Shown: piece after piece, positions 12,180 through 48,246 of the stretch
Numbering within the stretch: position 1 is the stretch's first letter
How the letters are laid out: every line of letters begins with the position of its first letter
Assembly (NCBI RefSeq): GCF_001677475.2
Contig: NZ_CP015229.1
Direction: 5' to 3' (one strand)
Origin: Escherichia coli
GTDB taxonomy: Bacteria; Pseudomonadota; Gammaproteobacteria; Enterobacterales; Enterobacteriaceae
Length of the DNA: 64,000 nucleotides
Translations under genes and position numbers: made by a program
The notes under the pieces: generated by a model
The model's database searches: none
Seen by the model: the letters and a program-made list of their open reading frames with translations, nothing else
What the model was told of the DNA's origin: nothing

Positions 12180-12904
12180 TCCAGCTGGTGTTGTTGCATA
12201 AACGACTCACCGCCTAACTGATACATCTGCCGTAAAATCCACGCCTGACGGCTACGCACGTAGCCCGATGGCGCGGAGACTTTGAAACGAAGTGGATTAG
12301 GTAATACAGCTGCCAGTAATGCAGCTTCCGACCGGGTAAGTTTGCTCGCGGGTTTGTGGAAATAACGTTGTGCCGCAGCTTCGACGCCAAACACACCGTC
12401 GCCAAATTCGGCGATATTCAGGTAAACCGTCAGGATACGCTTTTTGCTCCAGACCGTTTCTATCCCCAGCGTTAATCCGGCTTCTAGCCCTTTTCGAACC
12501 CAGCTACGCCCATCCCATAAAAAGAGATTTTTGGCCGTCTGCTGAGAAATCGTTGATGCACCGCGAATACGGTTTTCATTGCGCTCGTTGTGCGCCAGGG
12601 CTTTCTCAATGGAAGCGACATCAAAGCCCCAGTGCTCAGGAAATTTCTGATCTTCTGCGGCAATCACCGCCAGTCCCATCCACGGCGAGATTTGATCCAT
12701 ACTGACCCAGTCAGAATGTGCCACGTAACGAAAATTGCCATGCAGCCAGGCGCTGACCTGTCGCTCGACCATTACCGCTGAGAAAGGAACAGGCGCAACG
12801 CTAAACAACGCAATGCCCCCGCCCCAGAAAACGGCGAGGACAACCATTAACCGCAGAAGAAAACGGCGAACGAAACTAAACACCGTTAAGCGGCTTTTAC
12901 TCAT
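12176..12904 (-). CDS. mtgA: MtgA, monofunctional peptidoglycan glycosyltransferase
   Basis: ORF track 12176..12904(-), 242 aa; N-terminal TM segment and transglycosylase motifs. Confidence 0.93.
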
Positions 12905-13554
12905 TCAGCCAGAACCAGCACGCGGGAAACCAGCTTATCAATGCCGTTCGCCGCTTCCGCAATGTTCTGTGCCAACATATAAGCTGGTGTAGTGACAATC
13001 TTATTGTCTTCATCAACCACGATATCATCGACAGGACATGGCACATGCTCCGCGCCCATCTCTTCCAGCACTTCTGCGGTATCGATATCAGTACCGATGG
13101 TCAAACGCAGCGGGAAATCGAAAATTTTCGGCAGCATCGCCGGGGCAATACACACAAAACCAAGCGGTTTTCCGGCCTGATGCATCGCTTGTGCCAGCGC
13201 CTTTAATTCACGGTCAACGGTGCATTCGCTACCAAGACTGGCAAAATTGCTTAAATTCTTCGCCGCGCCAAACCCCCCCGGCACAATCAACGCATCCAGT
13301 TCAGCGGCATCGGCCTGGGCCAGAGGACGGATTTCACCGCGCGTTATTCGTGCCGCTTCAATCAGCACATTGCGCGTTTCCGTCATCGCTTCGCCAGTTA
13401 AATGGTTGATAACATCAACCTGCTGCTTATCCGGTGCAAAGCAGACCGCCTGCGCACCGCTGCGTGAAATAGCTAACAACGTCAACACCGCTTCATGAAT
13501 TTCAGAACCGTCATAGACGCCGCATCCGCTCAGAATTACGCCAATTTTCTTCAT
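12901..13554 (-). CDS. elbB: ElbB (YhbL), DJ-1/PfpI-like glyoxalase-family protein
   Basis: ORF track 12901..13563(-) trimmed to [10 protein letters not shown]... (217 aa). Confidence 0.9.
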
Positions 13555-13671
13555 TGTGATCATCCTTTCGCAATTGACTGAAACACATTAATTTTTTTAA
13601 TAAAAATGCTACGCATCACACATTTAACTGATTCATGTAACAAATCATTTAAGTTTTGCTATCTTAACTGC

Positions 13672-13792
13672 GTGCGGCCTGAAAAACAGTGCTGTGCCCT
13701 TGTAACTCATCATAATAATTTACGGCGCAGCCAAGATTTCCCTGGTGTTGGCGCAGTATTCGCGCACCCCGGTCTAGCCGGGGTCATTTTTT
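13672..13792 (+). ncRNA. arcZ: ArcZ (SraH/RyhA) Hfq-dependent small RNA
   Basis: Sequence GTGCGGCCTGAAAAACAGTGCTGTGCCCTTGTAACTCATCATAATAATTTACGGCGCAGCCAAGATTTCCCTGGTGTTGGCGCAGTATTCGCGCACCCCGGTCTAGCCGGGGTCATTTTTT recognised from memory as ArcZ; ends in a GC-rich hairpin plus T-run; convergent with arcB and overlaps its 3' end. Confidence 0.85.
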
Positions 13793-16120
13793 AGTGGCTT
13801 TTGCCACCCACGCTTTCAGTACTTCTACGTCGTGACGCCACTCTTCTTTCATCTCTTCAATCCATTCACCGACGTTATCTTCCCAGGCGGGAAGGTCAGG
13901 AGACTGAATTTGCTGACCCAGCTGTTGCAGATGGCGTAACCCCACTGACCCCGCCGCACCTTTAATTTTATGTCCTTCCTCAACAATGCCTTTTTTATCC
14001 TGCGCCGTCAGATTCGACTCCAGCACGCTGACATAGCCCGGCATCATCTTCTCAAACACCGCTAACCCGTCGGTGATCAGCTTCGGTCCTACAAGTTCGA
14101 GATACTGTTCCAGCATGGGAATATCGAGCAATGCTTCTGATTTACTGTTCTCTTCTGTCGTCACCGTACTCTCCTCATCATCCTGGGTATCCCAGAATTT
14201 CTTGATCATCGCGGTTAGCGCCGGAACAGAAAGCGGCTTACTCAGCACATCATCCATTCCAGCATTGAGGTACTCTTGTTTGTCTTTCAACACGTTAGCG
14301 GTTAAGGCCACCAGCGGCGGTAAATCCTCGCGCGGATAACGCTTCGTCAGTTCACGAGAGATATCCAGCCCGGTCATATCTGGCAACTGAATATCCAGCA
14401 ACACCAGGTCGTATTCGCCCGGTTTAAACATTTCCAGCGCCGCCTTGCCGGTCATGGCGACATCAACGCTGTTACCTAATTTTTCCAGCACAGAGCGTGC
14501 GACAATCACGTTCAGTTCAATATCTTCCACCAGCAGCACATTCAGCGCCGGTAAAGGCATATCGTCTTCATCAAACGCATCATCAACCTCTTCTGCTACC
14601 GACGGTGCGTGGATCGTCAACGTAAAGGTTGAACCTTTGCCCTGTTCGCTGGTAACCGTAATATCGCCGCCCATATTTTTCGCCAGACGACGAGAAACGG
14701 CCAGACCAATACCGGTGCCGGTGGCAGGTTTACCGCCATGACTGTCTTTCACTTGGTAATACATGGCGAAGATTTTATCCAGCTCATCTTGCGGAATGCC
14801 GATACCAGAGTCTTCCACTTCAAAATGCAGCATATCGCCTTCATCGTAGCGCACGCGCACGGTAACCTGGCCTTGCTGGGTGAATTTGACGGCGTTACTG
14901 ATGAGATTCCACAGGATCTGCCGTAAACGCGTCCCGTCGGTAATGACCTGATGCGGTAATGGCAGCGTCGGCTCCAGATTAAAGCGCAATCCTTTCTGTT
15001 GCGCCTGCAATGCGGAGAGATTTTCCAGATCGGCAAGGAAGCTGGTGAAATCAACCGGCTGATTATCAAGCTGGACCTTGCGCCGTTCCATCTTATCCAT
15101 GTCGATAATATCGTTGAAGATATTCCCCAGCGTGACGGCCGAAACATGGATGGTTTTGAGATATTTTTCCTGCTCGGCGGTGAGTTCGGTATCCAGTAGG
15201 ATGCGGCTCAGGCCGACGATACCGTTCAGCGGTGTACGCAATTCGTGACTGATGGTGGAGATAAACGTCGTTTTGTCGCGGCTGGCCCGTTCAAGCGCAT
15301 CCTGATACCGCTTACGCTCGGTAATGTCGCGACCAAAGCCCATCAAACCGTGACGTTTACCCACGCGGTCGTAGTACGGCACTTTACGAATTTCAAAGCA
15401 GGCTTTGCGTCCGTCGGGATAATCCAGCCACTGCTCATAGGTCAGTGACACATTATGACGGAACACTTTTTCATCGGTTTCAATGACTTTCGCAGCGGCT
15501 TCCGGTGAGTAAACATCAGCAGGTTTCAGATGAACCAGTTGTTTTTCGCTTTTTCCGGTCAGCAGCTCCATCGCGCGGTTACAGCCGGAAAACTCTTTAT
15601 CTTCGTTACGATAAAAAACCAGGTCGGGTGAAGCATCAAGGAAGGAACGTAAGAATGAGGATTGCTGCTCGAGCTGAATTTGTGTCTCTTCGCGCTCTTT
15701 GATTTCAATTTTCAGTTGGCCGAAGGTTTCCTGCAGTTCTGCTTCCGCTTTTTCACGAACGGCAATTTCCTGATTTAGCTGGGCAATATTATCTTTTAAC
15801 TGAACGTTGAGGCTCAAATCGCGCTCGCGCATCTCCTCCAGTTTTTGCACCAGCCGTGACAGACGTTGTCGTGACTCCTCCAGTTGCTCGACGACCACCG
15901 ATAGAAAGTAGACCGCCCACGGCGTAATCAGCAAACCAAAGAAGATAGAACGAATAACATCAATGCTTTCGACCTGACCATGCAGCACCATGGTTACCGC
16001 CATTTGTACCACAATGGCAAGAACGACGAGGGCCAGCGCCAGCAACATTGAGAAGCGCACCAGACCTAACTTCATCATCAGGTCAACATAATACTGCGCC
16101 AGCAGACGAATTTGCTTCAT
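13784..16120 (-). CDS. arcB: ArcB, aerobic respiration control sensor histidine kinase
   Basis: ORF track 13784..16120(-), 778 aa; HisKA motif (SHELRTPLN), receiver and HPt domains. Confidence 0.96.
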   Translation of the reverse strand: MKQIRLLAQYYVDLMMKLGLVRFSMLLALALVVLAIVVQMAVTMVLHGQVESIDVIRSIFFGLLITPWAVYFLSVVVEQLEESRQRLSRLVQKLEEMRERDLSLNVQLKDNIAQLNQEIAVREKAEAELQETFGQLKIEIKEREETQIQLEQQSSFLRSFLDASPDLVFYRNEDKEFSGCNRAMELLTGKSEKQLVHLKPADVYSPEAAAKVIETDEKVFRHNVSLTYEQWLDYPDGRKACFEIRKVPYYDRVGKRHGLMGFGRDITERKRYQDALERASRDKTTFISTISHELRTPLNGIVGLSRILLDTELTAEQEKYLKTIHVSAVTLGNIFNDIIDMDKMERRKVQLDNQPVDFTSFLADLENLSALQAQQKGLRFNLEPTLPLPHQVITDGTRLRQILWNLISNAVKFTQQGQVTVRVRYDEGDMLHFEVEDSGIGIPQDELDKIFAMYYQVKDSHGGKPATGTGIGLAVSRRLAKNMGGDITVTSEQGKGSTFTLTIHAPSVAEEVDDAFDEDDMPLPALNVLLVEDIELNVIVARSVLEKLGNSVDVAMTGKAALEMFKPGEYDLVLLDIQLPDMTGLDISRELTKRYPREDLPPLVALTANVLKDKQEYLNAGMDDVLSKPLSVPALTAMIKKFWDTQDDEESTVTTEENSKSEALLDIPMLEQYLELVGPKLITDGLAVFEKMMPGYVSVLESNLTAQDKKGIVEEGHKIKGAAGSVGLRHLQQLGQQIQSPDLPAWEDNVGEWIEEMKEEWRHDVEVLKAWVAKATKK

Positions 16121-23711: not shown

Positions 23712-23720
23712 GCTCTGTCC

Positions 23721-23753
23721 CAGCGCCGCCTCCTCAGAAAAGAGTCGGCGCTG
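23721..23753 (+). terminator. Putative gltBD terminator hairpin (approximate coordinates)
   Basis: Inverted repeat cagcgccg...cggcgctg starting about 10 bp after the gltD stop; the following T-run is weak. Confidence 0.4.
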
Positions 23754-23894
23754 AAATTCTCCTTTCTTTCTGGAAAGCGCCTCGCATAATCTGAAGAAAA
23801 CCAATGTAATACGCTCATCTGGATTGTTACCGGTAGATGCCCGGCGTATAGCTGATTCCATTATTCAACGCAGCGCCATATAAAGGGACAGATA

Positions 23895-48106: not shown

Positions 48107-48135
48107 TTAGTTACTGCAGTAGAGGATTTTTTACG

Positions 48136-48173
48136 GCTGCCGGATGCAGCGTGAACGCCCTATCCGGCCTACG
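48136..48173. repeat. REP element between tldD and yhdP (approximate coordinates)
   Basis: gctgccggatgcagcgtgaacgccctatccggcctacg closely matches the E. coli REP consensus. Confidence 0.7.
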
Positions 48174-48246
48174 GTTATGTTCTGGCTCGTTGGCCTTTGG
48201 CAACGATTATCATATGAGATTGGGGCAATTACGCGCCCTCGTCAAA

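Follow-up and report, generated by a model that had tools for sequence, protein, structure and literature searches.

An arcZ small RNA gene identical to the K-12 reference copy lies convergent with arcB in a non-K-12 Escherichia coli strain

An arcZ gene lies between elbB and arcB

The window analyzed here, a 64-kb stretch of E. coli DNA, carries the protein-coding genes elbB and arcB on its minus strand, and between them a short gene on the plus strand. The features of this locus, each given with the evidence for it, are the following.

12901..13554, minus strand: elbB, the divergent upstream neighbor, 217 amino acids from the K-12 start (open reading frame, K-12 annotation, Pfam)
13606..13794, plus strand: spurious 62-amino-acid open reading frame overlapping arcZ (open reading frame list; ATG upstream of the transcription start; no Pfam family; frame not kept)
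13636..13665, plus strand: arcZ promoter (read from the sequence; conserved in alignment A2)
13672..13792, plus strand: arcZ gene, formerly sraH or ryhA, primary transcript of 121 nt (full-model RF00081 match; identity to b4450)
13691..13731, plus strand: ArcZ 5′ stem-loop, in which 13691..13698 pairs with 13724..13731 (Rfam consensus structure)
13735..13739, plus strand: predicted RNase E motif G-A|U-U-U (consensus RN|WUU), cut between 13736 and 13737 (sequence and position agree with PMC11331407)
13737..13792, plus strand: processed 56-nt ArcZ with pairing core, hairpin 2 (13744..13768) and terminator (invariance in alignment A2; length and role from PMC11331407)
13766..13792, plus strand: arcZ Rho-independent terminator, a hairpin at 13766..13784 followed by CA and six T residues at 13787..13792 (terminator scan, minimum free energy fold)
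13784..13792, both strands: 9-nt overlap of arcZ and arcB, made up of the arcB stop codon TGA (13784..13786) and two AAA lysine codons (13787..13792) (open reading frame and K-12 comparison)
13784..16120, minus strand: arcB, tripartite sensor kinase of 778 amino acids (open reading frame; Pfam; arcB in K-12 and RefSeq records)

When the full 64 kb was searched with Rfam 15 at gathering thresholds, a single family exceeded its threshold anywhere in the window. This family, RF00081 (ArcZ), matches 13672..13779 on the plus strand with 120.8 bits (gathering cut-off 66, E = 4.1e-27), and its covariance model is covered end to end (positions 1-106 of 106) with no truncation. The last 13 nucleotides of the gene (13780..13792) lie past the Rfam match, and they finish the terminator hairpin and supply the run of six T residues. 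Comparison of 13672..13792 with arcZ of MG1655 (b4450, NC_000913.3 3350577..3350697, plus strand) reveals that 121 of 121 nucleotides are identical. A longer alignment to K-12, extending over 13560..13830, agrees at 269 of 271 bases, and both mismatches reside outside arcZ: a C instead of a G at 13609, which is 63 nt upstream of the arcZ start, and a T instead of a C at 13820, within arcB.

Of 5426 complete E. coli genomes, 5416 carry the same 121-nt gene, 5395 of them with at least 99% identity. Given this distribution and an E value of 4e-27, a chance match is not an issue. We regard it as virtually certain that the plus strand of 13672..13792 encodes ArcZ, an Hfq-dependent small RNA known from Enterobacterales, and that this arcZ gene belongs to an E. 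coli strain other than K-12. It is an already known gene in a known arrangement, identical to the reference copy, and there is nothing new about it. A sequence-only reading of this DNA had placed the full ArcZ sequence at exactly these coordinates and had proposed the Rfam model and the MG1655 sequence as checks; both bear it out, and the Rfam match, the terminator end and the MG1655 identity together fix the same two boundaries.

All 5416 matching genomes carry the full 121-nt gene, and 5362 cover at least 80% of a 271-nt query that includes the promoter. The difference implies that about 54 E. coli genomes are interrupted or diverged just outside arcZ, of which one was looked at (strain HSP60, described below). 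Ten complete genomes yielded no match for arcZ, and one extra copy is carried on a plasmid.

The arcZ promoter is conserved and relies on an extended -10 element

The arcZ transcription start is G13672, according to the K-12 annotation and the published 5′ mapping cited in PMC11331407. Reading the sequence upstream of this nucleotide, we find a -35-like element, TGTAACA, at 13636..13642 and an extended -10 element, TGcTATCTT, at 13657..13665, with a spacer of 17 bp if the -35 hexamer is taken as GTAACA. In alignment A2, both TGTAACA and TTTGCTAT are invariant or nearly so over 36 genera. A strict sigma-70 scan of 13400..14000 called no promoter, which we attribute to a limit of the scanner, because the arcZ promoter matches just 4+4 of 12 positions and relies on its extended -10 element.

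The stretch from 13618 to 13642 (CACATTTAACTGATTCATGTAACA), which includes the -35 element and a block upstream of it, is strongly conserved from Escherichia to Photorhabdus and Proteus. This conservation exceeds what a bare -35 element needs, and the block may be considered a candidate regulator site. No fit to the 11-bp-spaced ArcA direct repeat was seen in 13618..13642.

In E. coli HSP60 (NZ_CM137001.1, 2233..3000 of the locus extracted as L003), an IS1A element sits inside the arcZ promoter at the equivalent of window position ~13656..13664. The element is flanked by a 9-bp duplication (ttgctatct) that holds the -10 region, and the -35 element is separated from the -10 element. The ArcZ sequence of this strain also carries the substitution G5A (GTGCAGCC).

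ArcZ has a variable 5′ half and an invariant core

The full ArcZ RNA folds with a minimum free energy of -42.3 kcal/mol (z = -2.7 versus shuffled sequences). In the 36-genus alignment, an Rfam-like structure to which the terminator is added leaves 88.9% of the cells paired, versus 31-54% with slid partners. Both bases have changed in eleven pairs, some of them in the terminator, whose stem shows compensatory GC-to-AU replacements in Photorhabdus, Proteus and Providencia. The two helices of hairpin 2 never vary across the 36 genera, and hence carry no covariation information.

The 5′ half of the RNA is highly variable between genera in alignment A2, with insertions and deletions. Within it, all eight pairs of the 5′ stem are changed on both sides somewhere among the 36 genera, and 76.6% of the cells are paired despite a rough alignment. 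This stem-loop belongs to the part of full-length ArcZ that is lost on processing (PMC11331407). The core at 13738..13770 (A2 columns T124..C156) is invariant over the 36 genera, and straight after the processing site, at 13740..13755, is the motif CCCUGGUGUUGGCGCA, which is named as part of the conserved ArcZ 3′ core in PMC11331407. The active form of ArcZ is 56 nt long according to this 2024 review, and a cut at the RNase E motif predicted from the sequence would leave 13737..13792, which is exactly 56 nt.

The terminator stem at 13766..13784 consists of eight base pairs, six of them G-C, and is followed by the tail CATTTTTT. Its final base, T13784, also lies opposite the third base of TGA, the stop codon of arcB.

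Overlap of arcZ with the end of arcB is maintained in most Enterobacterales loci compared

The product of 13787..16120 on the minus strand is a 778-amino-acid ArcB protein with the Pfam domains HKR_ArcB_TM, PAS, HisKA, HATPase_c, Response_reg and Hpt, and it ends in ...KATKK*. The arcB stop codon falls between the ArcZ hairpin and the U-tract, and the U-tail of the RNA (T6, 13787..13792) is the antisense of the last two arcB lysine codons (AAA). The six bases at 13787..13792 seem to double as an Hfq-binding tail and as two codons of arcB. The overlap in MG1655 is likewise 9 nt, with arcZ ending at 3350697 and arcB occupying 3350689..3353025 on the minus strand.

We used the 29-nt core (13740..13768) as an exact-pattern query against a collection of species-representative genomes, and obtained exact matches in at least 120 species of Enterobacterales, which represent over 40 genera. 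The matches listed include Escherichia, Salmonella, Citrobacter, Klebsiella, Enterobacter, Yersinia, Photorhabdus and Xenorhabdus, as well as Proteus, Providencia, Morganella, Erwinia, Pantoea and Rahnella. Among the matches listed, 95 loci from other species had enough flanking sequence for the geometry to be evaluated, and a homologue of the ArcB C-terminus is convergent directly downstream of arcZ in every one of these (95/95). With the last T of the run and the arcB stop codon as endpoints, the overlap at these 95 loci is 9-11 nt in 84, 1-2 nt in five and absent in six, the last group including some Pantoea, Mixta and Chimaeribacter. These counts agree with the overlap of usually about ten bases given in PMC11331407. 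Among 96 sequences (the window plus these 95 loci), 85 encode a C-terminal Lys-Lys in ArcB and 85 have an overlap of 9-11 nt. Other ArcB C-terminal endings seen are VASR, VANR, NQGA, AREK, EREK, RKKQ and AEQA.

The position of elbB is less constant: among the matches listed, 61 of 92 loci have it upstream of arcZ in divergent orientation, and a different neighbor is found in the rest. In these gene neighborhoods, the conserved link is that of arcZ with arcB, rather than that of arcZ with elbB. In the window, the elbB-arcB gap (13555..13783) measures 229 nt and is made up of 117 nt of divergent promoter region followed by arcZ; an in-frame ATG at 13563 would lengthen elbB to an open reading frame of 220 amino acids.

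Three further statements of the sequence-only reading concern this geometry, and all of them stand. Its remark that the terminator overlaps the last arcB codons on the opposite strand is literally true over 9 nt (13784..13792). The arrangement that it called known has an identical counterpart in MG1655 and the same convergent partner in every usable locus noted above. Finally, ArcZ does explain the elbB-arcB spacer, which is filled by arcZ (from 13672 on) and a conserved promoter.

Protein-coding or minus-strand readings of the interval are highly improbable

Three other readings of this interval were considered. The first takes the 62-amino-acid open reading frame at 13606..13794 on the plus strand for a genuine small-protein gene and regards the RNA match as secondary. 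The frame is indeed present and begins with ATG, but the mapped start of transcription is 66 nt downstream of this start codon, which therefore lies outside of the ArcZ transcript. The predicted product matches no Pfam family, and neither the K-12 annotation nor the PGAP annotation places a coding sequence here. Furthermore, of 95 species among the matches listed, 48 have a frame that closes no more than 30 nt ahead of the core, none has an ATG in this frame at a distance of 60 nt or more upstream, and the open stretch has a median of 29 nt versus 33 and 37 nt in the control frames. This reading retains almost no probability, and it was dropped because the frame is not conserved and has no family match. 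The sequence-only reading had called the frame spurious, and the position of its ATG, the absence of a Pfam family and the unconserved frame justify that word; the frame is a by-product of arcZ.

A second reading, for which we see scarcely any chance, makes ArcZ a dual-function RNA that encodes a leaderless peptide of 40 codons, from a GTG at +1 (13672) in frame with a TAG at 13792..13794. Position 13672 shares the frame of the 62-amino-acid open reading frame, which is open to 13794, and the support for the peptide comes from the sequence alone. However, leaderless initiation at GTG is generally inefficient, the frame is not kept across genera, and the 5′ half of ArcZ, with its insertions and deletions, is highly variable. 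No ArcZ peptide is mentioned in the reviews PMC11331407 and PMC10948607. This candidate was dropped as well, since its frame is unconserved and lacks a family match.

A third reading, in which the interval holds merely the arcB 3′ untranslated region or terminator and the elbB promoter, with no independent plus-strand RNA, could draw on the hairpin at 13766..13784 that directly follows the arcB stop codon and is foldable on either strand, but it is exceedingly improbable: on the minus strand this hairpin is followed by GCGCGAAU, which is no U-tract, the T6 run belongs to the plus strand, the conserved extended -10 promoter points in the plus direction, and the full-length RF00081 match, the K-12 annotation and the published 5′ mapping all indicate a plus-strand RNA.

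Regulation by ArcZ, arcB and ArcA

With the interval read as arcZ, the course of events in this strain can be proposed from work on the identical K-12 RNA (PMC11331407, PMC10948607). Transcription of arcZ would be high in aerobic and stationary-phase cells, and would be repressed by ArcB/ArcA-P when oxygen is scarce. Hfq would bind the 121-nt primary ArcZ, from which RNase E would release a stable 56-nt 3′ fragment (13737..13792), whose single-stranded conserved core would be expected to pair with mRNAs and to raise rpoS translation. By analogy to K-12, the same fragment should repress flhDC, mutS, the small RNA CyaR and other targets. It is also expected that ArcZ lowers arcB mRNA and that arcB mRNA lowers ArcZ, which would establish a feedback loop.

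Such a loop, in which the ArcZ and arcB transcripts lower each other, has been described for K-12 (Mandin and Gottesman, 2010, via PMC11331407 and PMC10948607). How arcB mRNA lowers ArcZ has been the subject of speculation, with antisense destabilization proposed (PMC11331407). ArcA-P is reported to repress arcZ (PMC11331407, PMC10948607), and to do so by binding the arcZ promoter (PMC11331407). In contrast, the ArcA ChIP-seq study of Park et al. (2013) found no ArcA site upstream of arcZ and mentions ArcA-dependent activation of arcZ (PMC3798270). This discrepancy between PMC3798270 and the ArcZ/RpoS reviews is not discussed in PMC11331407 or PMC10948607. Our scan for ArcA boxes (GTTAAN6GTTAA with up to two mismatches) gave 104 hits in the window and none in the arcZ promoter region (13555..13671), although this pattern is too crude for the result to serve as evidence of absence. 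Nothing contradicts the identification of arcZ, and the weak points all concern its regulation.

Plain duplex energies between ArcZ and the K-12 rpoS leader were no better than those of shuffled sequences. The runs used accessibility-blind energies, and covered the whole 56-nt form, its first 24 nt, and a search limited to the rpoS hub at -150..-61; shuffles were at least as good in 121/300, 279/1000, 144/1000 and 619/1000 cases. The hub-limited optimum includes a pairing of UUCCCU in ArcZ with AGGGGAA in rpoS near -106, which is without statistical support. The null outcome of this duplex test may reflect the method rather than the biology.

arcB transcripts might read through arcZ

On the minus strand the shared hairpin is not followed by a U-tract, as described above, and a terminator scan of this strand called no terminator between arcB and elbB. 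It is possible, albeit unlikely in our estimation, that arcB lacks an efficient terminator of its own, and that its transcripts cover the whole of arcZ in antisense and perhaps extend into elbB-mtgA. Mutual repression would then proceed via full-length antisense pairing or transcriptional collision, and not via the 9-nt overlap. If true, read-through of arcB into arcZ would be a modest finding, and it is the sole reading of this locus with any novelty. A literature search for mapping data on the 3′ end of arcB, or for bidirectional termination at the arcZ/arcB locus, yielded nothing useful.

Farther along the minus strand, at 13682..13731, the antisense of the ArcZ 5′ stem (8 bp with a 25-nt loop) is followed by ACUG and then UUUUU, the latter being the complement of ArcZ A11-A15. 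To judge from its sequence, this element resembles a terminator at which arcB transcripts could stop, and the scanner left it uncalled because of its overlong loop. The ACUG/UUUUU arrangement after the antisense 5′ stem is found in E. coli, Salmonella and Citrobacter, and the run of A residues is unconserved in other genera.

Value for annotation and the wider window

The value of identifying arcZ here is one of annotation only, in that it accounts for an intergenic spacer and removes a false open reading frame of 62 amino acids. It is well established that ArcZ couples oxygen sensing by ArcAB with motility, mutation rate and the general stress response under RpoS. The curated MG1655 record annotates arcZ, whereas the PGAP-annotated RefSeq record NZ_CP023820.1 contains no arcZ ncRNA. 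In every row listed by the two E. coli genome searches, the matching stretch carries no gene name other than arcB. Because the arcZ annotation is missing from the PGAP-annotated RefSeq E. coli records inspected, automated readers of those records would miss this small RNA.

Compared with MG1655 from 3336905 on, the window is about 98.2-98.7% identical, and thus derives from another E. coli lineage. At 23713..23767, some ~7.08 kb that follow gltD in K-12 (MG1655 3360618..3367698) are absent. The absent K-12 segment carries gltF, yhcF and the fimbrial genes yhcA-yhcD-yhcE, the latter with IS5 in K-12; in the window, about 55 bp separate gltD from the region upstream of yhcG. At 48133..48196, two pieces of the MG1655 alignment overlap, and ~210 bp of the K-12 tldD-yhdP spacer (3392133..3392344) are without a counterpart; these are possibly repeat elements.

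Comparison with known systems

The closest known system is K-12 ArcZ itself (SraH/RyhA, RF00081, b4450), which has the same 121 nt, promoter, RNase E site, 56-nt core and terminator as the gene described here. The K-12 locus also exhibits the same 9-nt convergent overlap with arcB and has elbB as its divergent neighbor, and there is no difference within the gene.

Like ArcZ, the small RNAs DsrA and RprA are Hfq-dependent, act on the hub in the rpoS 5′ untranslated region and have a Rho-independent terminator (PMC10948607). Their sequences and loci are unrelated to those of ArcZ, and they respond to other input signals (cold, envelope stress). Moreover, ArcZ needs an RNase E cut to act and lies in antisense to the end of the gene for its own regulator; the reviews say neither of these things about DsrA or RprA (PMC11331407, PMC10948607).

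A further comparison is with cis-antisense pairs that share a terminator at convergent ends. ArcZ and arcB are likewise complementary over at least 9 nt, and over a longer distance if arcB reads on, and mutual repression is reported for them too (PMC11331407, PMC10948607). Unlike a symmetrical bidirectional terminator, however, the ArcZ hairpin is flanked by a U-tract on just one side, and unlike cis-antisense pairs, ArcZ acts mainly in trans by imperfect pairing (PMC11331407).
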